64,000 bases of DNA from a virus. Made by a program: the position numbers and the translations under genes. The notes under the pieces were generated by a model. The model searched no databases, was not told where the DNA came from, and worked only from the letters and a program-made list of their open reading frames with translations. Location of the stretch: positions 50,444 through 114,443 of the IMG/VR virus record IMGVR_UViG_3300042556_001053. One strand, 5' to 3'. Below, piece after piece: positions 17,518 to 42,156 of the stretch; the stretch's first letter is position 1; every line of letters starts with the position of its first letter.

Positions 17518-17557
17518 AGCAGTAATTGTACCATAAGATTATACAGTTTTTGATATT

Positions 17558-22743: not shown

Positions 22744-25586
22744 ATGTTTTCACTAAAATACAAAGTAGAGTATAACTCTAATCCTAACTACCCTCTATCA
22801 AAAGAGTTTGGTAATGTTTCTCTAACAGTACCTAGCGAGGTCTACGCTAATGAATACTTAGACCTAGTATCTCAAAGAGGTACTATCCTAGAAGTTTCTC
22901 TAACAGAGTTAGAAAACTACACACCTAGCAATCGTCAGGTGTACGCTACTACTAGAAGTTGGGAGTAATCGTAATGGATACTTATAACAGAATTCTTAAA
23001 GAGCAACAAGAAAAAAGACTTGCTCAATTAGAAAAAAATAAGGCTAGCATAGAGGCTATGTTCTCTAGCAATAGTCGCCCTCTAAATAATAATCATGAAT
23101 TAAAGAAAGTAGAAAACTAATGAGTCACTATGTAAATGTTAAATCAGTTTGTGGAAACGCAACTGCTGCAATTGACATGTATGATTTAGAACTAAACAAC
23201 GAAATTGTTTGTTGTGACAATTGCAAATCAATTTTGATTTGTCGTAATGCTTGGAACGAATTGTATAAGGAGAATAAATAAATGTTAGTTGTAATGATTG
23301 CAATGTTGGTGTTTGGTTTTCTTTACTACCATAGTAATTTATAAACATGCAACGCACTGCATAAAAAAGCTCGGGGCTTCTGTGGTGTAGATCACATTTA
23401 AGTTACGGCGTGTCGCCTTGACTTTTTGACTTTTATCGTGTAGTATTCTACTTATACAATTAAATAAAGATAAATCAGGCAGTGAGCCTAGCAAATAAGT
23501 GTGATGCAAATCACAATGAGCCTAGCGAATAAATGCCCTAATTTGTCAGTACCCCCTGATAGGATAGTCTTATCAATTAAACGAAAGGAAGTCACTCAAT
23601 GACTTACACTGTAACACTAGAAACCTTTAATGGTTCAGTAAAGAAAATCGCTCTACCTTCACGAGGTGCTGTTGCTCAATTTATTTCACAGTATCCTAAC
23701 ACTCTACCTGTTGGCGTATCTGTCAAGGTCGCTTGCGACTCTCTTGCAATTTCTGGAACACTACGAGGAAAGGCTTCACTATAATGAAAATTGAACACAA
23801 TCTAAAGTTTGTCACAGAGTTTGCAGAGGGCCATCCTGTAACAATGCAGATGAGTGCACTACCTGAAACACTACGCATTCAAATGCTTGAGTCAATGCTA
23901 AAAGAGTTAATCGCTCCAAAGTTAGGACCTATCCTTGATGAAATTAACGCAGGCGGGTCCTATGCAATTCTAAAGGTGGTTCAGTAATGATGACACGCAA
24001 AGACTATGTAGCAACTGCAGAAATTTTAAATAAGTTTGCTGACAGAATTGATTCACATGAATTCAATGATTTAGTTTTTGAATTTGGTGAAATGTTTTTA
24101 GCGGACAATCAAAGATTTGTTGTAGAAAAATTTGAAAGTGCTTGCTATGAAAATACAATGTCACACATTCAACAATCAACAAGATACAATCCTAACTTGT
24201 AAAATAAAAAACCTAAGCAAGTTTTAAAACTGCTTGATCTTTTCAAATAAAAAAGCTCGGGGGTTTTCCACAGGCTGTGGATAAGTTTACGTGGTTGTGA
24301 TTTTTCTCACATTTATTGAGCGTCTCACTATTTAAGACTACTTGCTAGTAATTAGATTTTTGTCAGTAGGTAATGATAGGATTACAGAGTAATAAAGTAA
24401 TTAAACAAAAAGAAAGAGGTTGCCACATGGCTACTAAACTATACACAATAGAAAACCTACTTGTAGGAAAAACTTATCGCTCACGAAACCGCCACTTTGA
24501 GGGTGTAATCACACACGCAGAAAAGCGTGAAGGAATTTGGTATGGAGAAAATACTGAGGCGTATGTCGTACAGATTGACACGCCTTCCTATTTGTCAGAC
24601 CGCTATGCTACTGTTGCAGTAAAGATTGGAGAATAATAATGAACACATGGAATTGCATGGATTGCTATGATGAGGGCGTACTCTTTTGGGGTAGCACTAA
24701 TGGCGAATACGATACAGAATTTTGTGAGTGTAACAAGGGTGTTATGCTTTACAACGAATACACCGCATGGTACGCTAGTAATGAATTAAACGAATACACA
24801 TTGGAGAACGCATAATGAACGAATACCTATACTCTGTCACCGCTACCTATGACTCTGCCTCTGCACCTGTTTGGATTGGTCGTTATAGTGATGCTTTATC
24901 TGCCGTTGAAACTTTCCAGCAATTTGTTGATAGTGGAGATGCTAAAGAATACGCAACAATTAACCTGTCTGAACCTTCAGGCAAGATGCACACAAAAACT
25001 TTCTACACTACAGGATTGGTGGTAACACGATAATGGGAAGCAATTTCGCAACAGACCTATCAGAAAACATTGACATAAGCCTTGAACAGGCTATTGGTTA
25101 TCACTTACAGGGTAATCACTATCCACCAGTACCGCTAAGCATGGTGCCAGTATGCATACAGGCTATTGACTTTGCTCATGAGGATAAGTGGGACGAGACT
25201 ATTGAGATGCCTGATGGTATTTCTTATAAGGGCTTAACTGCTGCACCAGTTTGGGCTATTATTGAGCAACACCACTTGCACGCATGGCTACCAGAAAACG
25301 TTGAAGATTTTAACGAAGACTTAGGATTTGAATTAGGATTGGGGTTAGAATAATGAGTGATACAATAATTGACATGGAACTTGTAAAAGCTGATGCATTG
25401 AAAGTAGATGCATTGCAGATTGGCGATCTAATCAGTTACAATGATGAGATTGTTGAAATAACTTTTATTGAATGCGATTCAACAGGAGATAACTATGACA
25501 TTGAAATCAGAAATGATTTTGGTGAAACAGAAGTTGTTCAGTTTGCATTTGATGAAGAAGTTGATTGGTACGTCTACTTAGACTAA
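22744..25586 (+). CDS. Run of small rightward early-type hypothetical genes (22744, 22974, 23120, 23599, 23784, 23987, 24427, 24815, 25033, 25353)
   Basis: Tightly packed, often TAATG-coupled ORFs with AAGGA/GGAG RBS; 25033..25353 has a conserved-looking HLQGNHYPPVP motif. Confidence 0.65.
24208..24236 (+). ncRNA. 3'-UTR H-type pseudoknot, copy 1
   Basis: AAAAC-C-TAAGCA-A-GTTTT-AAAAC-TGCTTG. Confidence 0.6.
24264..24284. promoter_or_regulatory. Inverted DnaA-box pair with 3-bp spacer
   Basis: TTTTCCACA-GGC-TGTGGATAA. Confidence 0.65.
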
Positions 25587-25808
25587 AAGGGGCCGAGGCC
25601 CTGTGATCTACGCCACAATTACGTAAGTTGATATTTTCTCCCATTTCTGGTAAGATTATTACATGAAGAAAAATGCTGAGGAATTAAGACGATTAATGGA
25701 ATTACGTCGTTCTAATGCAGCCTCCGCTGTTCCAAATAAAAAGAAATACAATAGAAAAAAATGTCAGTCCCAAATGCTAAAATTAAGTAAAGAAAGCGAG
25801 TAGCCACC

Positions 25809-26531
25809 ATGACTAAATTACTCAGAAGCAAAGATAGGAAAGTAGCAAATGCCGTCACCCCTAATGGAAAACAAGCAAGTATCGCCAACACGTTTGGTCT
25901 CCCCGCAGGAAAGGCGTACTCATGCCCTGGAGCGACTAGCGTATGCGAGAGTGTTTGTTATGCTGGCAAATTGGAAAAGGTATTCCCAACAGTAAAGAAA
26001 AACCTATTGCACAATTGGGAATTAGTTAAAGACGCTGATCACGATACTATTGAAGCATTGCTTGAAGAGATGATTAAAGATTTTAAGGCTGATTGTGTAA
26101 AGCGTGAAGCGCCTATGCTATTTCGTATTCACTGGGACGGCGATTTCTTTAATGATACTTATACATTCGCATGGAAGCATGTCATCCTTAATAATCCTGA
26201 TATTCAGTTCTGGGTATACACACGTGTGAAGAGTGCAGCGGTAATGCTTAAGGATATCCCTAACCTTAGTCTTTATTACTCTACAGATAGTGAGAATAAG
26301 TCTATTGGCGTTACCCTGAAAAAAGATCATGGTATAAAGCTTGCATACCTTGCTAAGAATTTCTTAGTAGGACAGGCAGACATGAAAGAGATGATTGGCA
26401 AGGTAGGCGCTAAGTGTCCTGAGAATAAGAAAGCCATTCCCCTAATCTCAACAAATGGAAGCGCTTGCGTTTCTTGCTCATTGTGTGTATACTCTAAGAG
26501 CGACATAGTATTCTCGTCAAGCAAGAAATGA
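25809..26531 (+). CDS. Gene product 88-like (radical-SAM-related) protein
   Basis: FGLPAG..SCPGATSVCESVCYA, FRIHWDGDF, FWVYTR motifs. Confidence 0.75.
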   Translation: MTKLLRSKDRKVANAVTPNGKQASIANTFGLPAGKAYSCPGATSVCESVCYAGKLEKVFPTVKKNLLHNWELVKDADHDTIEALLEEMIKDFKADCVKREAPMLFRIHWDGDFFNDTYTFAWKHVILNNPDIQFWVYTRVKSAAVMLKDIPNLSLYYSTDSENKSIGVTLKKDHGIKLAYLAKNFLVGQADMKEMIGKVGAKCPENKKAIPLISTNGSACVSCSLCVYSKSDIVFSSSKK

Positions 26532-26720
26532 GGAGATAAATGGAAAGTCTAGTTATCCTATCACTAATAGGGTTGTTAGTCTTGCTAATCAACCAATAAT
26601 GTGACATAAATCACACCCGCAAGCGTCTCAAATAGTGAGAAATACAAGAAATGGAGTTGAAAAATGTCAGTAGGAAATGTTATACTTAATACATACAACA
26701 AACTAACAAGGAGAAAAAAC

Positions 26721-26888
26721 ATGACAGTAGCAACAAACACATACAAGGTAGGCGACCTCTACACATCTCAGAAGTCAAAGGTAACAGGAACAATTCTTGA
26801 AATCTCACCTACTGCTAAGGACACAGTTCGTGTGAAGTTAGATGTAAATGGCAACACACGCTGGACAACATGGAAGGCTAATGCGTAA
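26721..26888 (+). CDS. Small SH3/KOW-like protein
   Basis: AGGAG RBS; YKVGD...VTGTILEI...VRVKL. Confidence 0.6.
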   Translation: MTVATNTYKVGDLYTSQKSKVTGTILEISPTAKDTVRVKLDVNGNTRWTTWKANA

Positions 26889-26902
26889 TTAGTTAGTTCT
26901 AT

Positions 26903-26929
26903 GTCCTGAGCATGACTCTAAACTGCTCA
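26903..26929 (+). ncRNA. 3'-UTR H-type pseudoknot, copy 2
   Basis: GTC-C-TGAGCA-T-GAC-TCTAAAC-TGCTCA. Confidence 0.6.
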
Positions 26930-26992
26930 CACTAAAAATGTCAGACCTACCCCCTATACTATAAATAAACCACCAAAGAAAAGAGAAACCAC

Positions 26993-27415
26993 ATGGCAAG
27001 AAGCAAAGCAATCTCAGTAAAGATAGCAACACCAAAAGTAATCAAGGCACTAGAAACTCGTCTAGCAAAGTTACAATCAGACTATGCCTCACAAGAAGCA
27101 AACGAAGCAAAGTTTGAGAAGGCAAGAGAAAAGTGGCAGAAGGAAGTAGCAAAGTTTGCTATGACTCATTTTGCTAAAGCAGAAAACCTACGCACAAACT
27201 ATCGCTCATGGAATAAGACACTTAATGTTGATTTTGATTTAACAGTTAGTGAGTCAGACTTTCCTAAAGAGCCTGAGAAGGACTACGAAGTTCTACACCG
27301 CCACTCATACAATGAGATGAAAGAGGAACTAGAAAACGCAATTCGTATCCTCAAGATGACAGATGAGGAAACAGTTAGCACTAGCACATACAACGCTATT
27401 GCTCGTTATCTCTAA
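26993..27415 (+). CDS. Hypothetical early protein (helical)
   Basis: 140-aa ORF behind the TGTCAG promoter at 26939. Confidence 0.7.
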   Translation: MARSKAISVKIATPKVIKALETRLAKLQSDYASQEANEAKFEKAREKWQKEVAKFAMTHFAKAENLRTNYRSWNKTLNVDFDLTVSESDFPKEPEKDYEVLHRHSYNEMKEELENAIRILKMTDEETVSTSTYNAIARYL

Positions 27416-27503
27416 TTAGATTGAGAGATGGGGGAGGGTATTTGACTCCCCCGTCAAAATCTAGTACAATTAAATTAACCAAACAAACAGAAAGCAGGCC
27501 CCC

Positions 27504-27923
27504 ATGGACCAGGTAACAAAAGTAGATAACCATTTCATGACACGAGAATTTCTTGAGTCACAATTAGTAGCAAACAAAGAGCGTATTGCTCAATTAGAAA
27601 AGCACATCCAAGAAGTAACTCAGCGCTCATATGGTGAGGCTGCAGAACGTAACCGCATGCGTAATGAAATGCATGAGTGGACCTTAGAACAAGTTAACGA
27701 TTCAGTTATCTCAGAAGATACTGCACAAGAGATTGCAGACATTTGTGGCTTTGAGTTAACACAAGAATTTGAATTGGAAGTTTCAGTTCAGTATTCAGTT
27801 ACAGTTAATGCACGTAATGAAGAAGAGGCAATGAACCTAATGTATGACATTGATTTTGATTCAGTGTCACATCCTGACGGCGTAACTTATTTGTCATCAA
27901 CAGTTGACAGAGTGGATATTTAG
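27504..27923 (+). CDS. Hypothetical early protein
   Basis: 139-aa ORF; TTGACT-17-TACAAT promoter. Confidence 0.7.
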   Translation: MDQVTKVDNHFMTREFLESQLVANKERIAQLEKHIQEVTQRSYGEAAERNRMRNEMHEWTLEQVNDSVISEDTAQEIADICGFELTQEFELEVSVQYSVTVNARNEEEAMNLMYDIDFDSVSHPDGVTYLSSTVDRVDI

Positions 27924-27939
27924 TAGGGGGTCTACTAAT

Positions 27940-27967
27940 AAACCTGAGCATGTTTTAAAACTGCTCC
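27940..27967 (+). ncRNA. 3'-UTR H-type pseudoknot, copy 3
   Basis: AAAC-C-TGAGCA-T-GTTT-TAAAAC-TGCTCC. Confidence 0.6.
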
Positions 27968-28132
27968 TTCAATTCCCTTGAAAAAATGCTCGGGCCCTGT
28001 GAGCTAGATCACACTATGATTTACGACACATTAAAAAAATGTCCATTTTCTCCCATTTTTAACTATCCTGATTTGCATTTGTCAGTGGCCTTGTGTATAC
28101 TTAAATTATCAACAACAAAAAGGAGAAAACTC

Positions 28133-29149
28133 ATGGCACATGAACTAGAGACACAAAATGGCGTAGCAAGTTTTGCATCATTTCGTGAACCCGCTTGGCA
28201 TGGATTGGGTACCGTATTTACAGAAGAAAAAAACACAGCAGAGATGTTGCAAGCAGCAAATCTCAATGGGTGGAATGTTCGTCTGGAAGATTTGGAAACC
28301 CCATCACATTTAACAAGCGACAAAAACTATCAGTACGTTTTGCGTACTAATCCTACAGACAACTCACAGACAGACATTCTTGGTGTCGTAGGTGAGCGCT
28401 ACCATGTTATGCAGAATGAAGATTTGTTTTCATTTGGTGATAACATTCTAGATGGTGGTGGACGTTGGGAGACCGCTGGCTCAATCAAGGGTGGACGTGT
28501 TGTATTTGGTGCACTAGCACTAGAGCGTGAAACTGTTCTTGACCCTAACGGTGTCGCAGATAAGGTAAAGACTTATTTACTTATCAACACATCACATGAT
28601 GGCTCAATCGCTATTCAAGCAAGCATTACACCTGTTCGTGTTGTGTGCGCTAACACTCTTAACCTTGCATTGAATACAACTAAGCGCAAGGGTGGCGTAA
28701 AGCAATCTTTCAAGATTCGTCACACACAGACAGCACAAGGTAAGGTCGCTATTGCACGCCAGACATTGGGCATGGCTAACGCTTACATGGATTCATTTGA
28801 CATCATGGCTAAGGCAATGATTGAAAAAGAAATCAATGCTAAGCAATTTAACGACATCATTCTTGCTGCATACCCTCAGCCTGACAAGGACACTAAGGGC
28901 GCACTAAAGAAGTGGGAAAACAAGGTTGATGTTATCAATGACATCTACACAGGCCAGTTTAATGGTATGATTGCTGGTAACGCATGGGGTGCTTTCAATG
29001 CACTAACAGAGCGTTTAGATTGGTACCGTTCTGCTCGTGGTGGTTCTAACGAATCTATCCTTGCATCTGCAAGTGGTTTTGACCCTGCTATCAATGCAGA
29101 AAAAAATCGTTTGCTAAAAGTTGTACAGAATGTTATGCAACTAGCATAA
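28133..29149 (+). CDS. DUF932 / TIGR03299 phage-plasmid-like protein
   Basis: MAHEL...REPAWHGLG, ETAGSIKGG, NTSHDGS, TPVRVVCANTL, IRHT motifs; AGGAG RBS. Confidence 0.85.
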   Translation: MAHELETQNGVASFASFREPAWHGLGTVFTEEKNTAEMLQAANLNGWNVRLEDLETPSHLTSDKNYQYVLRTNPTDNSQTDILGVVGERYHVMQNEDLFSFGDNILDGGGRWETAGSIKGGRVVFGALALERETVLDPNGVADKVKTYLLINTSHDGSIAIQASITPVRVVCANTLNLALNTTKRKGGVKQSFKIRHTQTAQGKVAIARQTLGMANAYMDSFDIMAKAMIEKEINAKQFNDIILAAYPQPDKDTKGALKKWENKVDVINDIYTGQFNGMIAGNAWGAFNALTERLDWYRSARGGSNESILASASGFDPAINAEKNRLLKVVQNVMQLA

Positions 29150-29155
29150 TAAAAA

Positions 29156-29182
29156 ATCCTGAGCATGATGTAAAACTGCTCA
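29156..29182 (+). ncRNA. 3'-UTR H-type pseudoknot, copy 4 (2 nt before tRNA-Asp)
   Basis: ATC-C-TGAGCA-T-GAT-GTAAAAC-TGCTCA. Confidence 0.6.
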
Positions 29183-29184
29183 AT

Positions 29185-29258
29185 GGTCTGTTAGCTCAGT
29201 TGGTTAGAGCGCTACCCTGTCACGGTAGAGGTCGTGGGTTCAAGTCCCATACAGATCG
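29185..29258 (+). tRNA. tRNA-Asp(GUC)
   Basis: Full cloverleaf; CTACC-CTGTCAC-GGTAG anticodon arm; GGTTCAAGTCC T-arm. Confidence 0.95.
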
Positions 29259-29689
29259 CAAGAATTTAGGCCGAGGCAATTTGGACAAAACGGACATTTT
29301 AAGAAGCTATATAATTAATCTCAGAAATTTTAATTAAGAGGACTTGCTTTTTTTCGCAGATTCCTGTAAAATTAATATCATGAACACCATAAACGAATTA
29401 ATAAATGAAATCTATGATGACAACTACTCTCACCTAGAGTTTGAGGAAAACATGGGCGGTATTGATTGTGACTGCCATATCCACACTACACTAAACACTA
29501 TTGCTAGATATGCAGGAATTGAGGTAGGGTAATGTTAGGATATTGTAAAGAAGATCTAGATGAAATGATTAGCGCTGTTCAATCTGCTTTAACTACTGTT
29601 AATCCTGATGATGACCCATGGCTACATGATAACTTATTTAAAGTAACAGAGTTTATGAATGGCTTATGGGCAGAGGGGTACTTTGACTA

Positions 29690-29881
29690 ATGTGGACTAA
29701 GTATAGTTATGTTTGTACTAACTGTGATGCTCTTATTGAGATCACTACCCTGGCAATTCCTGAAGACAATGCCTCTTGCACCTGTATGCGTGGAGCTTGG
29801 GTAACACGTACTGCAGTAGAGGCTGTGACTAACATCACACCACCAAAAGTTGTAAAAATCAACACCAACCCTTATAATTAA
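29690..29881 (+). CDS. Small zinc-ribbon protein
   Basis: CTNC...CTC. Confidence 0.55.
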   Translation: MWTKYSYVCTNCDALIEITTLAIPEDNASCTCMRGAWVTRTAVEAVTNITPPKVVKINTNPYN

Positions 29882-30053
29882 TATATGGACATGAACACAC
29901 TAAGCGAGTATCTAAAGATTCACAAGATAAGTATTGAGCAAGACATGGAGCAAGCCCTACAAGGTGATGACCCTGGAGAGGGATTCCATTGGGAGTCAGA
30001 TGACTACTACCTAGGAGCACTAGACGCATACGACTATGTATTGGAGTTAATTA

Positions 30054-30329
30054 GTGAGTAAGGATTATCCTTTCATACCGCCACACCTAGAGAAGGGCTT
30101 AGAGGATATCTCTATCCCTTTGATTGACCTTATGCATGGGCACCTCAAGGTAGAAATGCTGGACTGTGAAGAACAATTAAATAATCTATCAGAGACTCAG
30201 GATGTGCCTATGTATAACTATGTGCAGGGATACATGGAGGCCTTGACAAACCTATACTGCTTGACGTATAATTTAAGTATAGACCGCCAACAAATAGAAA
30301 GAGACCACCATGCCAAACTGGGTATATAA
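30054..30329 (+). CDS. Hypothetical protein
   Basis: GTG start with GGAG RBS; YVQGYMEAL motif. Confidence 0.55.
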   Translation: MSKDYPFIPPHLEKGLEDISIPLIDLMHGHLKVEMLDCEEQLNNLSETQDVPMYNYVQGYMEALTNLYCLTYNLSIDRQQIERDHHAKLGI

Positions 30330-31005
30330 CGGACTGACCATTGAAGGTAGCCCTGACTCTGTAAAGAAGTTAATGGAGCAGATGAATACACCATTCGTTC
30401 GTGTCCATGACCAATGGAATGTAAAGACACAGCAAATGGAAAAGCAACAGGTTACATATCCAAACCCTGTCTTTGCATTCTGGAATATAATTAAACCAAC
30501 TGACATGGAAGCATACGACGGTCCTCAACCTAAGAATGACAACTTTGAAGAGGCCATGAAGTTTAAGTCAGACCACTGGTACGATTGGAATGTTCGCAAC
30601 TGGGGAACTAAGTGGGATGTAGCCGTCTCATCTCTTGAAACTAATCCTGATACATACATGGAAGAAACAGCCAATGGTGAGAACCATGTTGTCTACTATA
30701 ACTTTGAGACTGCATGGTCTCGTCCTATGAGTGCTTTAACTAAGTTATCTGAACAGTACCCTGATTTATTATTTACTTTGTCATATGAGGAAGAGACTGG
30801 CTGGGGTGGCGAATGTGAACTGCTTCGTGGTAAAGTTATCTCAGAGTCACAGTATGACAACATGTGCCGTAATTGCGACGGTACCTACCTAGATAATGAA
30901 ATCGTAGGTTGTGATGACTGTGGAGACTATCCATGCCCTCTATGTGGCTGGAGCAATGACATGTGTGAAGCACACCAAACTAGATATGAGGACCAACATG
31001 CCTAA
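30310..31005 (+). CDS. YubB/DUF1281 ferredoxin-like domain protein with Cys-rich tail
   Basis: MPNW..N.L, WYDWNVRNWGTKWD, FETAWS, YEEE motifs. Confidence 0.75.
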   Translation: MPNWVYNGLTIEGSPDSVKKLMEQMNTPFVRVHDQWNVKTQQMEKQQVTYPNPVFAFWNIIKPTDMEAYDGPQPKNDNFEEAMKFKSDHWYDWNVRNWGTKWDVAVSSLETNPDTYMEETANGENHVVYYNFETAWSRPMSALTKLSEQYPDLLFTLSYEEETGWGGECELLRGKVISESQYDNMCRNCDGTYLDNEIVGCDDCGDYPCPLCGWSNDMCEAHQTRYEDQHA

Positions 31006-32145: not shown

Positions 32146-32189
32146 AAAGGCTGCAGCGGTGGGCTTGACAAAAGCCTGCCGTTGTGCCC

Positions 32190-32995: not shown

Positions 32996-33437
32996 TTTTA
33001 AAAAACGGTACAGTCTTTTGGCTATAGGGCATATGGGCATATGCTGATGTCTTATTACATAGGTTATTTACTATAGGGATTCTGGTGTCTTTCTTGACTT
33101 CCCCCGTTTTTTCTGAGACAATTGTATCAAGATACTATTGAAAGGTTTGACAATGAAAGGTTCACTTTGTGCTTATAAGCGTGGAGAGCGTTACTTTACT
33201 AGTTATCACTGGTGTAATGAGTGTCCTCCTGTTTCTGAGTACCGTGCAATGGAGCGACAGCAAAAGCTTGACTGGACAAATGCAAATAAGATGAGAAATG
33301 AAAAGTGGAAGATCAAGAATGAGCGACGTATCAAGCACGATAAGAGTTTAGCGGATAAAGGGTTCTAACCAATAGTGCCCCTGTGGGGCATAGGATGGTT
33401 TGATACCTCTATTTCGCCGCCGAACTTAAAAGATTAA

Positions 33438-34250: not shown

Positions 34251-34525
34251 TCTGATGCCTCATCAACATATTGTGGTGCAATACATGGCTCATTGACTGC
34301 ATGTGCTACATATTTGCCACAAGGACATCTTCCTGTAGCACATTGGCACTTCTTTTCAGGATCTTCTCTTCCGTATGGGTGTGTTGGGAATGGTAGGCTA
34401 TCCCTATTTTCTTCTGTGACTACAACAAATATTGCCTTTTCTTGACATATTGTGCAGGCTTGAGCCTCTCCTTCCTCACATTGCATATTCATGCCACATC
34501 TTAAACATCTATAGTCTATTCTCAT
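34247..34525 (-). CDS. Cys-rich small protein
   Basis: CLRC, CTIC, CQC..GRCPCG. Confidence 0.55.
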   Translation of the reverse strand: MRIDYRCLRCGMNMQCEEGEAQACTICQEKAIFVVVTEENRDSLPFPTHPYGREDPEKKCQCATGRCPCGKYVAHAVNEPCIAPQYVDEASE

Positions 34526-34803
34526 GATTTTAGTATACCATATTTGACATTCCCCGTTTTTTGTGAGACAATAGGTATTGAAAAGGAGAATAACATGAAA
34601 TACATTTATGCTGTTGATTTAGAGAGAATGGAAGAGCTTTATTTTAGTAACACTCAGACTAATTTCTTTGCTGATGATGAAGAAAGAAGTAAGTTTAATG
34701 CTAAGCTTATAGTTGAAGCAGATACTGAAGATGAAGCTTTAAGAATGAGGATGGGTATGACAGATATAAATATGTGGAAACTTATAGATACAGAGCAATA
34801 AAA

Positions 34804-35391
34804 CTATTCTGTTGGCCAATCTTTTATTATTAGATTAGAGTTGACAACACCACGATATGGGTGCTCAGCTGGTGTTGTAATAGAATGAAAATGTCTACCA
34901 TCTACAATAAATGCTGCACCTCTTTTAGGGCTAATCCTTTTGTTTACTGTCACTGAAGGTGTAGCAAAACCAGCCTTATGTCTCTCATTGTATATGACTG
35001 TATCTCCATCAGAATCACTTGGGTAGTATAAAAATATATAGTGTGGCTCGTTGTAGTCTATGTGTGGGTACAAGGTCTTTTGTGTACCTTCTACTGTTGG
35101 TGTCATTATGTTCAGTTTTAATCGTTTAAAGCCATCAAACTCAATACCGTGTTTTTCTGTGAACTTTTTAACAATGTCAAAGAATACTTGTGCTGATGGA
35201 TCATCATTTTGTAGGTTGACAGTAAAATATGAAACATCTCCAACCTTAGTATCAACTACTCCAGTATTGCCTTCTATAGTTGGGGATGCATTCTTACCAA
35301 AGCTAAACTGTATATCTTTGTGCCAGAACTGTTGTTCTGCTGCTTCTATTTCTTCTTCTGTTAGGAAGCTATCGTCATAAATAAAGAACAT
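34804..35391 (-). CDS. 2OG-Fe(II) oxygenase
   Basis: PHID...LYYPSDSDGDT...PKRG...FDG-like IVDGRHFH...R. Confidence 0.8.
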   Translation of the reverse strand: MFFIYDDSFLTEEEIEAAEQQFWHKDIQFSFGKNASPTIEGNTGVVDTKVGDVSYFTVNLQNDDPSAQVFFDIVKKFTEKHGIEFDGFKRLKLNIMTPTVEGTQKTLYPHIDYNEPHYIFLYYPSDSDGDTVIYNERHKAGFATPSVTVNKRISPKRGAAFIVDGRHFHSITTPAEHPYRGVVNSNLIIKDWPTE

Positions 35392-35569
35392 TTTATCCCC
35401 TTTTCTCTCAATTATAGCATAATGAGATGTGGTATGATATATGTATGAACCCTGGAAAATGTTTTTATTGTGATAAGGACGCATCATATTTTGATGTCAT
35501 CATGGATGACGACAACTATCTGATTGCTGATGTATGCATTGATCATCTTAAGATGGGTCTATCTTCGTA

Positions 35570-36238
35570 ATGATACCAGTTCTATCAATACCAGTTTTAA
35601 ATAGGTATGATCTGTTGGATAAAAATCTAGAGCTGATTGATTTTCCTATTAAAGAAATATTAATTATTAATAATGGAAAAGAAGATTATCATCCAAAAAG
35701 AAAAGATTTAAATGTAAGAGTTTTAAATCTACCATCTAATTTGGGCATGGCTGGGTCTTGGAATTTAACAATAAAGCTTTACCCTCATGAAAAGTTTTGG
35801 CTATTCTCTTCAGCAGACACACACTGGATTCCTGGTGCACTAGAAAAATTTTATAAGTTAAGTAGCCCATCCAAAATGATAGCATCAACTGAAGGGTTTA
35901 GTTGTTTTTCTCTTGGAGAAGACATTGTAAGGAAAGCTGGATTGTTTGATGAATATTTTTATCCTTACATGTGGGAAGACAGCGAGTATGCTGAAAGATT
36001 TGAATCTATAAAAAAGAAAAATAATTATAATAATTTAGGCATGGATTTTCATGTAATCAAAGTTAATACACCAGAAGGACCAGCTCAAAGTATTAACAGT
36101 GATCCAAAATTATTTGAGAAGTATACAGAAACAGCCTATAAAAATGAAGAATATTTAAAATTAAAAAGATCTCAAGACTTTCAAATAATGGGTAGTTGGG
36201 ACATAGATAGAAGAAGAGATCAAGAATGGCTACTATAG
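35570..36238 (+). CDS. GT2-like glycosyltransferase
   Basis: IPVLN, IINNG, NLGMAGSWN, GLFDEYFYP..WED motifs. Confidence 0.8.
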   Translation: MIPVLSIPVLNRYDLLDKNLELIDFPIKEILIINNGKEDYHPKRKDLNVRVLNLPSNLGMAGSWNLTIKLYPHEKFWLFSSADTHWIPGALEKFYKLSSPSKMIASTEGFSCFSLGEDIVRKAGLFDEYFYPYMWEDSEYAERFESIKKKNNYNNLGMDFHVIKVNTPEGPAQSINSDPKLFEKYTETAYKNEEYLKLKRSQDFQIMGSWDIDRRRDQEWLL

Positions 36239-36888
36239 GAATTCTTCCAGCATCTGGAAAAGCATTAAGAATAGGTGGCATACCAAAGTTTTCTTTGCCT
36301 ATATCAGATGAAAAGTCTTTATTACAGTGGCATGTAGATCAAATGTTAGAAGTTTGTGATGAGGTCAGGGTATCTACTAAATCAGAATGGATACCAATCA
36401 TTCAAAACATGAACATGAATATTAAACTTATTGCTCTTGAGCCATCAACAATGTCTCATGCAGTAAAGTTTTTAGTTGGAGATTATAACGATACAGTTTT
36501 AGTTGGCATGCCAGATACATATATACACAATACAGATAAAAACATATACAAACAAATGATGAGTGTTGCTGGTGATTTAGTTCTTGGAACATGGGAATGT
36601 GACAATAATCTTAAGGGCAGTGTTGGTCAGGTTTTATTATCTGGAAACAAAGTAATTGCTTCTACTGACAAATCATCTGATTGTGAATACCCACATATGT
36701 GGGGAACAATGATGTTTAGAAAAAACCTGGTAAGATATATAGACCCAGACCTAGAGCATCCAGGAAAGCAAATACAGGAATGGATAGACATGAATCTAGA
36801 TATAAGATCCTCAAGTTCAGGTGGTAAGTATATGGACATAGGAACATTCTCAGGTTTAAAACAACTATATAAAGAAATGGATAAATAA
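36226..36888 (+). CDS. Sugar-phosphate nucleotidyltransferase
   Basis: GILPASGKALRIGGIPK, GMPD, YMDIGT motifs. Confidence 0.8.
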   Translation: MATIGILPASGKALRIGGIPKFSLPISDEKSLLQWHVDQMLEVCDEVRVSTKSEWIPIIQNMNMNIKLIALEPSTMSHAVKFLVGDYNDTVLVGMPDTYIHNTDKNIYKQMMSVAGDLVLGTWECDNNLKGSVGQVLLSGNKVIASTDKSSDCEYPHMWGTMMFRKNLVRYIDPDLEHPGKQIQEWIDMNLDIRSSSSGGKYMDIGTFSGLKQLYKEMDK

Positions 36889-36892
36889 TAAA

Positions 36893-37672
36893 ATGTATAA
36901 TGCCAAACTAAACAATGAGGCTTTTTTTGAAACAGATTTAGATAAACTTTCGGAAATCTGGGAACCAAGAAAAGAATATATAGACAAAGATTTATGGGTT
37001 ATTAGAAACTTTTTGATACCGCCTGAATTAGAATGGCTAAACAATGAAGCAAATGATCCAGATGGCTGGTACACAACTATGAGATCTCCTTATGGTGGAA
37101 ATATAAAAAATAAATTTTTAGGGTATATACCAGATTATGATGAAAATGGAAACATGCTTGTTCCTACAGAGCATTCAAAATGGAGGGAAAGAGATCATAT
37201 TAATTATATAGAAAAAAGAATAGAGTCTGTTGTACCTAAATATTTTGGTGGAGCTGGTGCTCTTCAGTCTTTCTTTGAAGTTTCTGATGAACAAATTTTT
37301 CAAGAAACTGGAAGAACAGATATTGATTATGCAATGGGATGGCATTATGAAAGAGATGATAGTGACTCAGAAAACCAACAAACAACTATTGTAGAAAACT
37401 CAAAAACACAAGGTAAAAGAATTAATAGTCAAGGGAAAATATCAGGATCTTTTAATGTTTACATTAATGATAATTTTGATGGTGGAATCTTAGAGTTTAG
37501 AAATAAAGATTATGTTGTTAAGCCAGAGGTTGGAATGCTGGTGAATATTCCTTTGTATAAAGAGTTTGAGCACAGAGTAACAAAGGTTACAAATGGAAAT
37601 AGACACACGATCTATGGAAGATCTTGGGATATTCAGGATGGAAAATATTTCTCTACTAACGAAGACTGCTAG
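36893..37672 (+). CDS. 2OG-Fe(II) oxygenase, P4H-like
   Basis: WHYE...YINDNFDGG...HRVTKV..GNR. Confidence 0.8.
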   Translation: MYNAKLNNEAFFETDLDKLSEIWEPRKEYIDKDLWVIRNFLIPPELEWLNNEANDPDGWYTTMRSPYGGNIKNKFLGYIPDYDENGNMLVPTEHSKWRERDHINYIEKRIESVVPKYFGGAGALQSFFEVSDEQIFQETGRTDIDYAMGWHYERDDSDSENQQTTIVENSKTQGKRINSQGKISGSFNVYINDNFDGGILEFRNKDYVVKPEVGMLVNIPLYKEFEHRVTKVTNGNRHTIYGRSWDIQDGKYFSTNEDC

Positions 37673-37873
37673 ACTTGACTTTAGCTTTCTTGTGGGTTAT
37701 AATTAATGTATGACTACTAGTTGTATAGAGTGTAATAAGATTGATACAGATGAAGACTTTTATGAGACTCATCAGTACATGTCTAACAATAGGTTATGGT
37801 GTGTAAATGCCAAAAGAGCCTAGAATTATGCAGATGGACTGGAAAGCTTTGGGATATGAGAGGGAGTATAAAG

Positions 37874-38128
37874 ATGGCAAACTCAGATGGATTCCTCAAG
37901 AGTTCAAAGAAAATAAACAGGACAAGGATACTTCCTCTTAGATGGATTGGTAATATCTGTAGTAATATTGCTACTAGGAGTTTGCTTAAAGCTTTTTATT
38001 TAGATGAGCAGGGCAATTATGGATACCGTTTCAAATTCCACAGCAAGGTTTGGGTTACACTTAATAAACCATATGAGCGTTGGGGTACATACTATACAAT
38101 TGATACAAGCAAGTGGAATAAAAAATGA
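37874..38128 (+). CDS. Hypothetical protein
   Basis: GGAG RBS before MANSDG. Confidence 0.5.
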   Translation: MANSDGFLKSSKKINRTRILPLRWIGNICSNIATRSLLKAFYLDEQGNYGYRFKFHSKVWVTLNKPYERWGTYYTIDTSKWNKK

Positions 38129-38775
38129 GACAGCCTATTCACGGTGCATTTGAATCATATCTGCAACCAGATAGTGGTACATGGAACTGGAATGAATCGT
38201 TACAGGCTTGGGAAGAATTAGATAATTATAAGCTACAAGAAGCTTTAACTATTTCTGGATATCCAAGAAGTGGAAACACATTTATTAATCATGCATTTTT
38301 TAAGATGTATGATTTTGCTCACATTAACTTCAATCGTCATACTGTAAAGAGTATTGCAGAAAGAGATCACACTTTTGTTCCCTTTAGACACCCGCTTGAA
38401 GCAATAAGTTCTTGGCACATATATCAGCAGGTACATTTTTTAGATGTAAGGTTTATTGAAAACGATATCAAATTCTACAATAGGTTTCATGAACAAGCAT
38501 TAGCAATGAAAGATAAGATAACTTTTCTTGACTTTGATCTATTTAAAAATAACACAAAATATTTAGAGGATAAGGTTTCTCATATATACAATGTTTCTGC
38601 AATGCCAGTAGAGGCTATTGAGGTAAAAGAATTCATGGCTCATAGAAGACTGACTCTAAATATCCCACGTAATGATGATGAAACTAAGCAAGAGGTAATG
38701 TATTTTGTAGAGAAGCAAGAATTGTACAAAATATCTTTAGATCTTTACAATCAAATCAAGGAATTATCTAATTAG
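38125..38775 (+). CDS. Sulfotransferase-like P-loop protein
   Basis: SGYPRSGNTF and PFRHPLEAISSW motifs. Confidence 0.65.
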   Translation: MRQPIHGAFESYLQPDSGTWNWNESLQAWEELDNYKLQEALTISGYPRSGNTFINHAFFKMYDFAHINFNRHTVKSIAERDHTFVPFRHPLEAISSWHIYQQVHFLDVRFIENDIKFYNRFHEQALAMKDKITFLDFDLFKNNTKYLEDKVSHIYNVSAMPVEAIEVKEFMAHRRLTLNIPRNDDETKQEVMYFVEKQELYKISLDLYNQIKELSN

Positions 38776-39900
38776 CTATAAGCGATTTATCTGCCTATTT
38801 ACAAACTCTAAGAACTTTCCTGTTAGTAAAGTAAAACCTAGCTCTGGTTTAGAATTAACACACTCTGCACTAACCAAATACTTTGCCCACTCCTTAACTG
38901 CAGCCTTATTCTTGCCAGAAGTGTCTGCCAGAAGGTAGGATACAATACCTAGAGGGTATGCTCCAGGTTCTTTGGTTGCATAGTCGTATGTAAGTATGTT
39001 GTTTGAGTCAACTGATGCTTCTCCTAAGAAGGCTGACACATTTGCACTGTCTGGTGCTACGAAATTACCAGATGCATTTCCTATGTTTGCCACCTTAAGA
39101 TTAAAGAACTTAGCAAATGATACCTCTGCATATGTAATAGAATACTTAGTCTTTGATGCAAGTGTTGCTACACCCTGTGACTGATTTGCTCCAACAACTC
39201 TTCCCATGTTATTAATATCATTAATGCTCTTTGGGAATGATGTTGAGAATGAATCAGATACAGCTTTTGTCCAAACCTCTGGAGAGTTTGCCTTCATAAA
39301 TCTAACAAAGTTATTTGTTGTTCCAGAGTTATCAAGTCTAAAGACTACCTTTATCTTTTGGTTTGGTAGTGTGTAAACAATGCTTTTGGTAGCAGTTCTT
39401 AGTATTACTGGATTTCCAGACTTATCCTTAACTAGATTACCAGCCTTATCTTTTCTATATATAACTTCTTTAATCTTTCTATTGTTATCAGCCTTAATAG
39501 CAGGATCATTCCACATTGTTATTTCTCCCGCAAAAATCTTAGCTACTGTAGTTGATGATAAATATAGCTGTCTGTTTCCTGGGATATTGTGCATCACTGC
39601 GATAGGTGCTGCAACAACTGGAATGTGGATTACTGATGGCTTCTTTGTTGATGCTGTGTGTGCAGAGTCTGAGAACCAGAAATCTCCAATGCCCTTATCA
39701 GATGAAGTCTTACCAGCACCAGATCCGTTTGCTGAATATGTAACAATGTTTCCTGTTGACTTGGCATAAGATGATCTGCATTCATCAATAAGGTTTGCTG
39801 GAAAAGATGCTCCATTACCAACAATATTTTCTGCTGCAAAAGCAGGGGTAGAAATAGATAGAGCAGCAACGACTGCTATTAGGATAAGTTTAATTCTCAT
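38776..39900 (-). CDS. pstS: Phosphate ABC transporter substrate-binding protein
   Basis: Signal peptide; GNGASFP, GSGAG, IFAGEITMWNDPAI, R.DNSGTT..F, AYPL motifs. Confidence 0.9.
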   Translation of the reverse strand: MRIKLILIAVVAALSISTPAFAAENIVGNGASFPANLIDECRSSYAKSTGNIVTYSANGSGAGKTSSDKGIGDFWFSDSAHTASTKKPSVIHIPVVAAPIAVMHNIPGNRQLYLSSTTVAKIFAGEITMWNDPAIKADNNRKIKEVIYRKDKAGNLVKDKSGNPVILRTATKSIVYTLPNQKIKVVFRLDNSGTTNNFVRFMKANSPEVWTKAVSDSFSTSFPKSINDINNMGRVVGANQSQGVATLASKTKYSITYAEVSFAKFFNLKVANIGNASGNFVAPDSANVSAFLGEASVDSNNILTYDYATKEPGAYPLGIVSYLLADTSGKNKAAVKEWAKYLVSAECVNSKPELGFTLLTGKFLEFVNRQINRL

Positions 39901-39949
39901 AATAATAGTATATAGTAAATAAACTATATTATGGCAAATAATAGGCTCA

Positions 39950-39982
39950 TTTAACCAAGTGTTCACCTGATGTTCTACTTGA
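39950..39982. promoter_or_regulatory. PHO-box-like 11-nt direct repeats upstream of pstS
   Basis: TTTAACCAAGT GTTCACCTGAT GTTCTACTTGA, resembling the actinobacterial PhoP GTTCACC-N4 unit. Confidence 0.55.
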
Positions 39983-40013
39983 CTTGAACATAGATAAAGT
40001 GTATACTTGGTAT

Positions 40014-40250
40014 ATGAGCAAAGACAAAAGAATACTTAAAGATGGATCAGAAGTTGATTCATTTGATAGGCCAGTTGATTTAATTATACATACCAAGGCC
40101 CCAGAAAAATGGAAATTAGTTGACATGGAAACAGGCGAAGAATACCTTGGCTCTGAAATAGGTACTGACTTTGCAGAAATATTAAGAGAAAAGGTTAAAG
40201 CAAATAAAATAGGCACTTGGGTAAAAACCAAGGGCAAGCAGCTTGACTAA
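40014..40250 (+). CDS. Hypothetical protein
   Basis: IHTKAPEKWKLVDMETGEEY. Confidence 0.6.
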   Translation: MSKDKRILKDGSEVDSFDRPVDLIIHTKAPEKWKLVDMETGEEYLGSEIGTDFAEILREKVKANKIGTWVKTKGKQLD

Positions 40251-40277
40251 ACGACTATCTTAGGGTATACTGAATAT

Positions 40278-40562
40278 ATGAACCAATTTATGGAAAACTA
40301 TGCCTCATGGGTGCTTGCCGTCATAGGGGTCTTAGGTATATTTTTTGTTGGCCGTAAAAATTTTCTTGGCTGGTACATTCTTTTATTCAATGAAACTTTG
40401 TGGATAGTTTATGCTGTTGCTACTAAACAGTATGGGTTTATATTTTCTGCTCTCGCATATGCAGCAGTATATGTTCAATCACATAGACACTGGAAGGCTT
40501 TAGATTCAGAAAAGTTATCTTGGAGGAGTTTTGCCAAGTTGGTCTGGGACCGCAATGATTAA
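40278..40562 (+). CDS. PnuC-like small membrane protein
   Basis: Three TM helices; K..LGW...NE.LWI.Y....QYGF pattern. Confidence 0.55.
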   Translation: MNQFMENYASWVLAVIGVLGIFFVGRKNFLGWYILLFNETLWIVYAVATKQYGFIFSALAYAAVYVQSHRHWKALDSEKLSWRSFAKLVWDRND

Positions 40563-40761
40563 CATGGAGATTCCTGATCCATTCCAAACCTTTGTAGCCA
40601 AGAAGTATGCCAACGCTAAGGGATATGTGCATGACTTCTTTACTGGAGAGTGGTCTTACAAGTGTTTAACTTGTAAAGATGATCTTTATGCTCCATCCCG
40701 CAAAATTATGACAAAGATTCGTTTATACCATACAAGAAATGAGTGCACAGGTGGATACTGA
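40555..40761 (+). CDS. Small zinc-finger-like protein
   Basis: CLTC...H...C. Confidence 0.55.
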   Translation: MINMEIPDPFQTFVAKKYANAKGYVHDFFTGEWSYKCLTCKDDLYAPSRKIMTKIRLYHTRNECTGGY

Positions 40762-40964
40762 AGAAGAGTTTGACTTAGAGTTTACTGTTGAAGAAATGAT
40801 TAATATTTATGGTATTAATAGTCTTGAAGATTTAGATAGGATTAACTAATGTCATTATGTATGCTAGCAATACTTTTAACAGTACCGTCTTTTTTATTGG
40901 GATACTTTATATCGTACCTAGTAATGACTGTTGGAATTAAGCAAGACAAAGAATAGTGGTATTA

Positions 40965-41038
40965 GCTCCAGTAGCTCAGTTGGTTAGAGCCCCAAACTCA
41001 TAATTTGGTCGTCGTAGGTTCAAGTCCTACCTGGTGCA
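40965..41038 (+). tRNA. tRNA with CAU anticodon (Met or lysidine-type Ile2)
   Basis: Cloverleaf with CCAAA-CTCATAA-TTTGG; U3-U70 mismatch; C4-G69 and C5-G68 pairs. Confidence 0.9.
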
Positions 41039-41076
41039 CGAGATCTTTTATAGATCTACTTATATAAGGAGAATAA

Positions 41077-41613
41077 ATGAAAACTGTAGGAGAAAAACTT
41101 GGTAACTTTGCCGTTACTGGAGTTAAGCCTGGGGCATTGTCTTATGATGATTCCTCATTTGAAGTACTAACGCAAGATTCTTTTCCAGGCAAATGGAAGA
41201 TCATTGTGTTTTATCCAAAGGACTTTACATTCGTATGTCCGACAGAAATTGTTGCATACGATGCACTTGTAAATGATTTCAATGATCGTGATGCAGTATT
41301 GATGACTGGATCAGTTGATAATGAATTCTGTAAGGTTGCATGGAGAAATGCACACGATGACCTAAAGAAGACAAACTCATGGGCATTTGCAGATACAGCA
41401 CATCAGTTGGCTGGAGATCTAGGCGTTCATCATTCATCTGGTGTTACATATCGTGCAACATTTATTGTTGATCCAGAGAATACCATTCAGCACATTACGG
41501 TAAATAACCTTGATGTTGGTCGTAATGCAGATGAGGCACTTCGTGTGCTTGATGCACTACAAACAGGAGAGCTTTGTGCATGCAACAGACCTCTTGGAGG
41601 AGAGACTCTATAA
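41077..41613 (+). CDS. ahpC: Peroxiredoxin AhpC
   Basis: FYPKDFTFVCPTEI, GRN.DE.LR, ELCAC (actinobacterial type). Confidence 0.95.
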   Translation: MKTVGEKLGNFAVTGVKPGALSYDDSSFEVLTQDSFPGKWKIIVFYPKDFTFVCPTEIVAYDALVNDFNDRDAVLMTGSVDNEFCKVAWRNAHDDLKKTNSWAFADTAHQLAGDLGVHHSSGVTYRATFIVDPENTIQHITVNNLDVGRNADEALRVLDALQTGELCACNRPLGGETL

Positions 41614-42125
41614 TGTCTTGGGTTGATCAGCTTAAGGACAATCTTCCAGAGTATGCAAAAGACATTAAGTTAAACCTTGATGCAGTAATTAATAGATCAT
41701 CTATTGATTCTGAGCATGCCACATATCTTGCTCTTGCAGCTGCCTTTTCAACTGGAAACGGTAAGCTTGTTGCTTTCATTACAGCAAGTGCAACTGATGA
41801 GGTAGAAAGAAATGCTGCATTGACTGCTGGTGCAATCATGGCACAAAACAATGTTTGGTATCCATATTTAGAAATGGCAGATGATGCTAATCTTACTGGA
41901 TTACCAGCACAACTTCGTATGAATGCAATTGCATCTCATGGTGGTACAACAAAGGGAAAGTTTGAGGCATACTCTCTTGCTTCATCTATTGTTGGTAAGT
42001 GCCACTTCTGTGTTAAAGCACACTATGAAACATTGAAAGAAGAAGGCTATACTATTGAGCAGTTGCGTGATATCGGAAGAATTGCAGCAACAGTTAATGC
42101 ATTAGCAAAGATACTTTCAGCTTAG
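41613..42125 (+). CDS. ahpD: Alkylhydroperoxidase AhpD
   Basis: LPEYAKDIKLNL, MAQNNVWY, CHFCVKAH. Confidence 0.9.
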   Translation: MSWVDQLKDNLPEYAKDIKLNLDAVINRSSIDSEHATYLALAAAFSTGNGKLVAFITASATDEVERNAALTAGAIMAQNNVWYPYLEMADDANLTGLPAQLRMNAIASHGGTTKGKFEAYSLASSIVGKCHFCVKAHYETLKEEGYTIEQLRDIGRIAATVNALAKILSA

Positions 42126-42129
42126 AAAA

Positions 42130-42156
42130 AGTCCTGGGTATGACTAAAACTGCCCA
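42130..42156 (+). ncRNA. 3'-UTR H-type pseudoknot, copy 5
   Basis: AGTC-C-TGGGTA-T-GACT-AAAAC-TGCCCA, with compensatory changes. Confidence 0.6.

Follow-up and report, generated by a model that had tools for sequence, protein, structure and literature searches.

The window analysed here, a 64,000-nucleotide stretch (positions 50,444 to 114,443) of IMG/VR virus record IMGVR_UViG_3300042556_001053, is the right-hand 64 kb of a 114,443-bp viral genome, and direct reading of its sites found five copies of a short repeat, all on the plus strand amid plus-strand genes. The five repeats are true copies of a compact H-type pseudoknot RNA fold, hereafter called the knot. The knot belongs to the gene upstream of it, sits at a well-defined spacing past the stop codon of that gene, and is followed at once by an enrichment of features that end or cut RNA; its family is large and not catalogued in Rfam. 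We tentatively propose that the knot is a protein-independent roadblock forming the protected 3′ end of the upstream message, in which capacity it would block nucleases and stabilise the upstream RNA.

The knot, about 27 nt altogether, begins with the 5′ half of a variable stem 1 (S1; 3-5 bp, with the inner pair always C-G), followed by an unpaired C that forms loop 1 (L1). Next come the 5′ half of stem 2 (S2), reading UGAGCA or a variant, a single A or U as linker (L2) and the 3′ half of S1; a 5-7-nt loop 3 (L3) with AAAC at its end then leads to the 3′ half of S2, which is UGCUCA or whichever variant matches. The S2 of the window copies has 5-6 bp, and the five copies score 36-50 bits with a covariance model of 100 family members (Table 1). 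An initial annotation of the window had placed five such pseudoknots on the sense strand 4-16 nt past stop codons; their exact coordinates were recovered, and the 1-nt C loop, the 1-nt linker and the AAAC-ending L3 that it described are present in 5/5 copies. Scanning all 114,443 bp of the genome with a structural descriptor gave no sixth copy. The next covariance-model match (18.6 bits; Table 1) was not counted as a copy, because it is without the S2 5′ strand and lies among minus-strand genes.

The alignment of 100 copies was gathered with S2 held fixed, and S2 was therefore examined separately, in two ways. In S1, the two variable core pairs are formed in 100/100 aligned copies and draw on each of the four Watson-Crick types, a fourth pair persists in 77% of the copies, and the closing pair, C10-G19, is invariant in 100/100, the stem being 3-5 bp long. 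None of 500 shuffles reached the observed covariation score, and shifting the partner strands abolished the signal. The S1 covariation noticed in the window thus persisted in the larger alignment, its disappearance there having been set beforehand as an outcome that would count against it. Furthermore, a structural descriptor gave 143 matches in 1.17 Mb of loci, compared with 2 in a reversed-sequence control.

As for S2, covariance-model matches outside the scan pattern included wobble variants (UGAGUA/UGCUCA) and double changes (UAAGCA/UGCUUN, UGGGUA/UACCCA, UGAGUA/UACUCA and UGGGCA/UGCCC), with no disruptive change in the four central pairs. In addition, a compensated S2 allele, GGACA/UGUCC, is present in at least 120 viral contigs and 117/121 of its copies pass the S1 test, whereas each of the two uncompensated hybrids occurs in 12 contigs, close to what chance predicts, with 1/12 copies passing; this disparity bears out the S2 covariation first seen in the window. 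Two loci carry a 15-30-nt hairpin inserted in L2, with the S1 pairing preserved across the insert (Table 1). The S2 wobbles are all G-U on the sense strand, with no A-C equivalents seen, and knot orientation tracks gene orientation; together with the covariation, these features place the structure in the sense RNA and not in DNA. Nested folding yields the S2 hairpin only, at about -6 kcal/mol, and the fold thus depends on the knot. With both stems covarying, a 1-nt L1 and an A-rich L3, the assignment as an H-type pseudoknot stands. As a separate observation, three related phages of about 100 kb have AAAAAGGCUC in place of AAAACUGCUC at the junction, by which the invariant C-U becomes A-G and the junction A-U pair is lost (Table 1).

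The family comprises at least 240 viral contigs and at least about 66 bacterial or archaeal contigs, all such abundances being lower bounds. An exact-pattern scan of IMG/VR with the consensus S2 found at least 120 contigs, as did one with the second S2 allele. When one genome per prokaryote species was scanned, S1 pairing was also present in 70/124 of the matches listed, compared with about 3.5% by chance. Contigs binned with Methanobrevibacter carry the knot, host statements for metagenome bins being unreliable. Among cultured phages, BLAST found well-formed copies in Mycobacterium phage Labelle, the Arthrobacter Amigo/Molivia group and several Synechococcus phages, in Nostoc, Microcystis, Paracoccus, Lentibacter and Roseobacter (SIO1) phages, and in Bacillus, Lactobacillus, Streptococcus and Staphylococcus phages; well-formed copies are also present in crAss-like phages, a Vibrio phage group and a Microviridae. 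A few of the prokaryotic matches with S1 pairing nonetheless look like chance, among them three on Pseudomonas chromosomes (L145, L153 and L234) that lie inside coding sequence. At gathering thresholds, Rfam 15 returned five tRNAs only for the whole window, and a search with two copies at E values up to 10 gave nothing but a 13.8-bit chance match to a snoRNA, so that no existing entry takes away the novelty claimed for the fold. A full-text literature search with the conserved strings CCUGAGCA and AAACUGCUC returned unrelated papers only, and no description of the fold was found in phage structured-RNA surveys, in a search of the literature on exoribonuclease-resistant RNAs (xrRNAs) or RNase J in phages, or in the Minerva preprint.

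The knot is also found in a stand-alone mini-gene in chromosomes and metagenome-assembled genomes of anaerobes (Thermodesulfobacteriota, Eubacteriales, Spirochaetota, Aminicenantes and others). This unit consists of a strong Shine-Dalgarno (SD) sequence, an open reading frame (ORF) of about 20 codons with the peptide pattern M-K-R-F-x-x-P-R-x-A-H-C-x-E-G-C-x-x-x-S, a stop that is the UGA within the S2 of the knot, and then an intrinsic terminator. The ORF family has no NCBIfam match, and its neighbours are unrelated housekeeping genes.

A fold of this kind might be an aptamer with a riboswitch-like pocket, a tag for an RNA-binding protein or a site acting at the DNA level, for example as a point of cassette recombination, but all of these seem very improbable. 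The invariant junction and loop nucleotides do resemble those of small pseudoknot aptamers such as preQ1-I, and the presence of the same 24-27 nt in very different phages could favour the exchange of modules. However, no riboswitch in Rfam 15, including preQ1-I/II/III, SAM-II/V and the other pseudoknot riboswitches, was matched even at E = 10 in the search with two copies, and the family has neither a constant downstream partner gene nor an expression platform. No shared protein is evident among carriers that range from 5-kb Microviridae to 180-kb phages, and the covariation and strand-specific G-U wobbles argue for RNA rather than duplex DNA.

The relation of the knot to neighbouring genes was counted among the matches listed, which are arbitrary samples (n = 231-241 and n = 100), and genes were called by simple ORF rules, under which small ORFs and strand calls are uncertain and most 'opposite strand' calls are artefacts. 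ORFs of 40 codons or more on the strand of the knot terminate 5-20 nt before it, or at its internal UGA, in 136/231 copies, compared with 5.3% at random positions. In spacers of 150 nt or more between genes, 35/69 knots are no further than 25 nt from the upstream stop, and 7/69 are near the downstream start. Measured as the bases between the stop and the three obligatory S1 pairs, the distance drops off abruptly below 6 nt, which is also its commonest value (34 copies, with 20 more at 7 nt), and in only 3 copies does the stop lie between 5 nt upstream and the inside of S1/L1. The rule was replicated in the independent GGACA allele set, with 15 copies at 6 nt and none closer. The other arrangement in use takes the knot's own UGA as the stop, as in 10 long ORFs and the family of ORFs of about 20 codons. 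A spacing of 6 nt after the A-site codon is that known from frameshift and read-through pseudoknots. With the stop in the A site and a 6-nt spacer, S1 would stand at the mRNA entrance, and the terminating ribosome therefore need not melt the knot.

Such a position would also suit a translation-boundary element at the mRNA entrance of the ribosome, which would block read-through or sliding ribosomes, or tune termination, and so insulate a downstream tRNA, ribozyme or cistron. We consider this rather unlikely, although it is the best explainer of the spacing rule, with its sharp 6-nt minimum and mode, its almost empty zone from -5 to +6, and a stop codon inside S2 as the sole other arrangement allowed. 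The occurrence across bacterial phyla and in the Methanobrevibacter-binned contigs is as expected of a universal target. Moreover, coremin (xrRNA-C), known with its Watson-Crick variant xrRNA-WCC from beny-, cucumo- and other eukaryotic RNA viruses (Dilweg et al., PMC6546385, PMC10520033, PMC10321173), not only stalls Xrn1 but also blocks scanning ribosomes and stimulates -1 frameshifting. However, the spacing may be a passive constraint that keeps the knot from the melting zone, compaction setting the mode; about 40% of the copies have no detectable ORF end within 20 nt, and a spacer alone would be enough to keep a terminating ribosome away from a tRNA. Nor is there a conserved in-frame extension: the spacers fall in all three frame classes, the frame of the knot UGA relative to the ORF varies, and reading on past the stop before copy 1 gives 15 codons until the frame closes. 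Inspection of the five window copies found no slippery site. A read-through or frameshift signal, whose spacing (mode 6 nt) fits, was rejected for its lack of a frame preference, an extension or a slippery site.

Directly behind the knot, an end-forming feature (a U-tract, a tRNA 5′ end or a hammerhead) is present in about 30% of the copies. U-tracts start 0-3 nt past S2 in 36/233 copies and in 21/100 of the GGACA set, compared with 3% at random positions, and their rate upstream of the knot is likewise 3%. The 5′ end of a same-strand tRNA lies 3-14 nt downstream in 21/241 copies, on unrelated contigs, where about 0.1 would be expected, many of the tRNA-Asp cases being one syntenic group. The adjoining tRNAs are those for Asp, Arg, Ser and Gln, with Asn in the second set, and one tRNA only lies upstream of a knot. 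In the window, the copy said to end 2 nt ahead of tRNA-Asp was found to do so (copy 4; Table 1), and 13 related viral loci share this gene order; Arthrobacter phage Molivia has an SSB stop, a gap of 8 nt, the knot, a further 2 nt and then tRNA-Gly. Type III hammerheads, which punctuate prophage transcripts (PMC3088659), start 0-6 nt past four knots (Table 1).

The U-tracts past S2, five to seven times commoner than at random positions, might suggest a transcription terminator or attenuator in which S2, compacted by S1, is the terminator hairpin with or without a U-tract, and the early region of the window has promoters but no canonical sense-strand intrinsic terminator behind its genes. This explanation is nevertheless improbable, since 80-85% of the copies are without a U-tract, S2 alone has the low stability given above, and knots 2-14 nt before a tRNA, or about 19 nt before an SD-bearing start codon, would cut off the downstream gene. 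An intrinsic terminator, a G+C-rich hairpin with a U-tract directly behind it, does not describe the class as a whole: U-tracts are present in 15-21% of the copies family-wide and clearly absent from the five window copies, in agreement with the lack of a consistent U-tract reported from the window. The U-tract-bearing subset may well terminate transcription. A tRNA acceptor-arm mimic of the turnip yellow mosaic virus (TYMV) type, or an RNase P substrate, was rejected for the family in general, an A following S2 in 61% of the copies and ACCA in 15/236 (6%).

A roadblock could also face the other way. By stopping the 5′-to-3′ exonuclease RNase J on its way from the upstream gene, and possibly sliding ribosomes, the knot would act as a 5′ cap and the downstream RNA, be it the next cistron, a tRNA precursor or a 3′ UTR fragment, would survive, an explanation that we regard as possible but doubtful. 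Each conserved nucleotide has its counterpart in the coremin motif, in which mutation of the matching positions abolishes Xrn1 stalling. A 5′-to-3′ block in bacteria is physically plausible, because a flaviviral xrRNA also halts bacterial RNase J1 and such blocks are thus not enzyme-specific. In Firmicute phages, moreover, the knot stands ahead of scaffold and major-head genes. RNase J is borne by Actinobacteria, Cyanobacteria, Firmicutes and alpha-proteobacteria; the hosts of the cultured carriers belong mostly to these lineages, and enterobacterial and Pseudomonas phages, which are abundant in the collection, gave no match. A host restriction to RNase J-bearing lineages is suggestive only and is contradicted by the well-formed copy in the Vibrio phage group, the Vibrio host not being known to have RNase J. 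Against a 5′-to-3′ block there is also the anchoring of the knot to the upstream stop and not to the downstream start, and termination at a U-tract, or a cut at a tRNA 5′ end or hammerhead, directly behind the knot would part it from the RNA that it was to protect. The second hairpin that coremin requires downstream to resist Xrn1 (hp2) shows no enrichment: hairpins of 4 bp or more start within 4 nt in 74/233 copies, 90/233 at a control offset and 66/233 shuffles. Window copy 2 is outside the transcript of the downstream gene, because the promoter repeat of that gene starts 7 nt behind it.

Returning to the knot as the protected 3′ end of the upstream message, its action can be pictured in several steps. 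The knot is a self-folding structure of the sense transcript with a conserved helical junction, whose conserved parts are the closing C-G, the 1-nt C crossing S2, the junction A-U pair and W, and the AAAC along S1. Because it sits just beyond the reach of a ribosome on the stop codon, translation of the upstream gene would leave it unmelted. A few bases past it, the RNA would end through U-tract termination or be cut, either by RNase P where a tRNA adjoins or by a hammerhead, and elsewhere the transcript probably just ends ahead of the next promoter; an RNase P cut at the 5′ end of tRNA-Asp, for example, would leave copy 4 at the 3′ end of the upstream RNA. With RNA ends or cuts just behind it, the knot would be the terminal structure of the upstream message, where it would stop 3′-to-5′ exonucleases and keep decay and traffic from crossing the gene boundary with no dedicated protein. 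Small H-type pseudoknots placed on the 3′ ends of engineered prime editing guide RNAs (epegRNAs) reportedly protect these RNAs from 3′ decay.

Several points weigh against this scenario. About two thirds of the copies have no recognisable end-forming feature behind them, and in some cases a start codon follows at 20-60 nt from the knot, as with the scaffold and major-head genes of Lj771, StB12 and Page, a placement that fits protection of the downstream RNA. The bacterial units with ORFs of about 20 codons already hold a terminator hairpin. Furthermore, the conserved junction matches that of coremin, which is known to block 5′-to-3′ enzymes and ribosomes, and coremin-like folds may offer little mechanical resistance when approached from the 3′ side; to stop 3′ exonucleases, a simple hairpin would be enough, which leaves the strict conservation of the junction unexplained. 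The initial annotation had offered an exonuclease roadblock in either direction, a processing signal or a protein-binding tag for highly expressed transcripts. Of these, the roadblock fits the context best, its 3′-to-5′ version being favoured by the stop anchoring, the end-forming features and the promoter directly behind copy 2, and its RNase J version drawing support from the likeness to coremin. A processing signal in itself is unsupported, because separate cutters sit beside the knot.

The early region of the window contains seven copies of a promoter-like repeat, TTGTCAG-N10-TA(T/N)ACT (TGTCAG-N10-TATACT at 26936), each ahead of a small early gene or gene pair; it resembles the actinobacterial RecA-independent (PafBC-type) damage promoter. 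Palindromes of 16-20 bp, of the form TGTGGTGTAGGTCACA or TGTGA...TCACA, lie between knots and promoter repeats and, from their sequence, look like operator sites for a phage or host repressor. Such operator-like palindromes and a promoter repeat follow copy 3 at 27993-28103, inside the listed 5′ part of the long DUF932 ORF, whose true start is probably an ATG near 28133 behind a GGAG. A perfect DnaA-box-like 9-mer, TGTGGATAA, lies about 40 nt past copy 1, and the corresponding site of related loci (L005, L018 and L090) carries TTATCCACA or TGTGGATAA, with two occurrences in L090. Between the knot and a conserved small gene (MAR...), in the window and in further loci, stands a leader of 35-50 nt that is rich in A/C and poor in G, such as caacaaacaacgaaagaaaagg; it has no clear SD sequence and may be an unstructured translation leader. 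Elsewhere in the window, a row of about ten similar ORFs of 220-320 codons occupies part of the minus strand (Table 1).

Table 1. Positions of the knot copies, of neighbouring features in the window and of family loci named in the text (window coordinates unless a locus number is given)
Feature	Position	Strand	S1	L1	S2 and L3	Upstream ORF (spacer from stop to S1)	Score (bits)	Remark
Knot copy 1	24208-24236	+	AAAAC/GTTTT, 24208-24212 with 24221-24225, 5 bp	C24213	TAAGCA/TGCTTG, 24214-24219 with 24231-24236, compensated variant; L3 AAAAC	23987-24202, TAA ending 24202 (5 nt)	40.4	
Knot copy 2	26903-26929	+	GTC/GAC, 26903-26905 with 26914-26916	C26906	TGAGCA/TGCTCA, 26907-26912 with 26924-26929	26664-26888 (14 nt)	42.2	
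Knot copy 3	27940-27967	+	AAAC/GTTT	C27944	GAGCA/TGCTC, 27946-27950 with 27962-27966, 5 bp	27504-27923 (16 nt)	49.9	
Knot copy 4	29156-29182	+	ATC/GAT	C29159	TGAGCA/TGCTCA, 29160-29165 with 29177-29182	DUF932 gene, stop ending 29149 (6 nt)	47.2	Spacer at the family mode
Knot copy 5	42130-42156	+	AGTC/GACT	C42134	TGGGTA/TGCCCA, 42135-42140 with 42151-42156, compensated variant; L3 AAAAC	CMD-family ORF 41574-42125, TAG stop (4 nt)	35.8	
Next model match	57295-57330						18.6	Not counted as a copy
tRNA-Asp (GTC)	29185-29259	+						ARAGORN and Rfam; begins 2 nt past copy 4
Promoter-like repeat, seven copies	22669, 23541, 24590, 25759, 26662, 26936, 28077							
Promoter-like repeat behind copy 2	26936-26962	+						Upstream of gene starting 26993
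Promoter-like repeat in DUF932 ORF	28077-28103							
Operator-like palindromes	22301-22320, 22607-22626, 23381-23400, 23500-23519, 24296-24315, 25597-25617, 27993-28030							
DnaA-box-like 9-mer	24276-24284							
DUF932 long ORF	27986-29149							
A/C-rich leader	26930-26992; L005, L014, L096, L117, L020, L021							
Row of similar ORFs	6829-18277	-						
Knots with hairpin in L2	L064:3079-3147; L056:6622-6675	-; +						
Junction variant	L006:11343-11381; L033:3669-3707; L066:4517-4555	-; +; -						
Hammerhead	L173:7541-7595	-						Passes Rfam gathering score
Hammerheads	L173 7324 region; L166:7380-7456; L004:13779-13850	; -; +						Conserved core only
Mini-gene	L134:109-171; L221:2136-2243; L158:4716-4841	; -; -						
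Mini-gene, further loci	L146, L125, L195, L183, L186, L199, L206, L211, L228							

Structured RNAs that control the ends of phage messages are poorly known, and the knot is among the smallest of them, with carriers whose hosts span Actinobacteria, Firmicutes, Cyanobacteria and bacteria of the candidate phyla radiation (CPR), together with phages of Bacteroidota, and with no place in Rfam so far. If the knot alone protects ends or blocks nucleases or ribosomes, it would explain how neighbouring phage genes without terminators differ in stability, link phage RNA biology to the xrRNAs of eukaryotic viruses, and provide a compact, host-independent stabiliser or insulator for engineered RNAs. The strict 6-nt rule also offers a natural gauge of the reach of a terminating ribosome into the structure downstream. 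A wider view, which we put forward with reserve as a possibility, is that the knot is a protein-free RNA 'full stop' of DNA phages and bacteria, which has the three-dimensional junction of the coremin xrRNA, lies one ribosome-reach past the stop codon and halts RNase J, stray ribosomes or 3′ exonucleases. It would then be the first class of natural exoribonuclease-resistant RNAs in prokaryotes, with a fold that virus realms either share or have reached by convergence, and a ready-made 27-nt insulator part for synthetic operons.

Known stabilisers of RNA 3′ ends include the RNase III-processed hairpins of T7 mRNAs, the repetitive extragenic palindromic (REP) elements past E. coli stop codons, and the MALAT1 triple helix with its RNase P-cut mascRNA. 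The knot is like these in being a stable structure just past the coding part with an end made at once behind it; in MALAT1, RNase P makes that end by cutting at a tRNA-like fold, which is also what we propose for the knot-tRNA pairs. However, these stabilisers, whether simple hairpins or a U-rich/A-rich triple helix, are unrelated in sequence to the knot, which is a 27-nt pseudoknot with a conserved junction found across host phyla. The recoding pseudoknots of luteoviruses (-1 frameshift stimulators of the beet western yellows virus, BWYV, type) and of murine leukaemia virus (MuLV) gag-pol (read-through), and the autoregulatory gene 32 pseudoknot of T2/T4, are likewise compact H-type folds with a 1-nt L1 over an S2 of 6-7 bp, an A-rich L3 in the S1 groove and a spacer of 5-8 nt from the A-site codon. 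The knot differs from the recoding pseudoknots in having no slippery heptamer, conserved in-frame extension or fixed frame, and from the T2/T4 pseudoknot in not lying 5′ of a gene 32 homologue. The hammerheads and tRNAs that punctuate polycistronic RNAs of phages and prophages (PMC3088659; RF00008) occupy the same gene-boundary sites and are directly abutted by the knot; unlike the hammerhead, the knot has no ribozyme core and no sign of cleavage, and looks like the partner left on the upstream product.

Judged from its sequence, the knot is a relative of coremin or a convergent form of it, and coremin is its closest known relative. Coremin has a hairpin of 3-5 bp with a mandatory closing C-G (PMC6546385) and a loop, YGAD or YGNNAD, whose first base is a 1-nt bridge and in which G at position 2 is mandatory (PMC10520033). 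The loop is followed by the spacer GUUAAACUAC, in which A16-A20 (A16 A17 C18 U19 A20) are essential, and by hp2, of at least 4 bp; a selected Watson-Crick variant has an explicit 3-bp S2. The loop of the knot, C-U-G-A-G-C-A-W, keeps the first Y and the last A-(A/U), about 10% of the copies having C last, but the mandatory G at loop position 2 is absent, with U in its place and C in the Vibrio phage copy. The knot has an 8-nt loop, a 1-nt linker and no required hp2, and its S2, of 5-6 Watson-Crick pairs, is lengthened by four pairs, compared with the 3 non-canonical or Watson-Crick pairs of coremin. AAACU is invariant at columns 25-29 of the knot and the next base is an S2-paired G, where coremin has A; AAAAAGG forms a variant class. 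The carriers of the knot are DNA phages and bacteria, without Xrn1, whereas coremin is found in eukaryotic RNA viruses, and the context of the knot points to the 3′ end of an upstream RNA, whereas coremin leaves a stable downstream fragment. The knot was not filed as a member of the coremin class, because the loop G and the second hairpin are lacking. The two folds nevertheless correspond at C10-G19 of the knot and C4-G9 of coremin, at C11 and C5, at A17 and W18 and A7 and D8, and at A25-27, C28 and U29 and A15-17, C18 and U19. Both have the closing C-G, an S1 of 3-5 bp, the first loop C as a 1-nt L1 and an S2 made by pairing of the loop with the spacer, and they share strings such as GACGUUAAACU and are both often found just past a stop codon.

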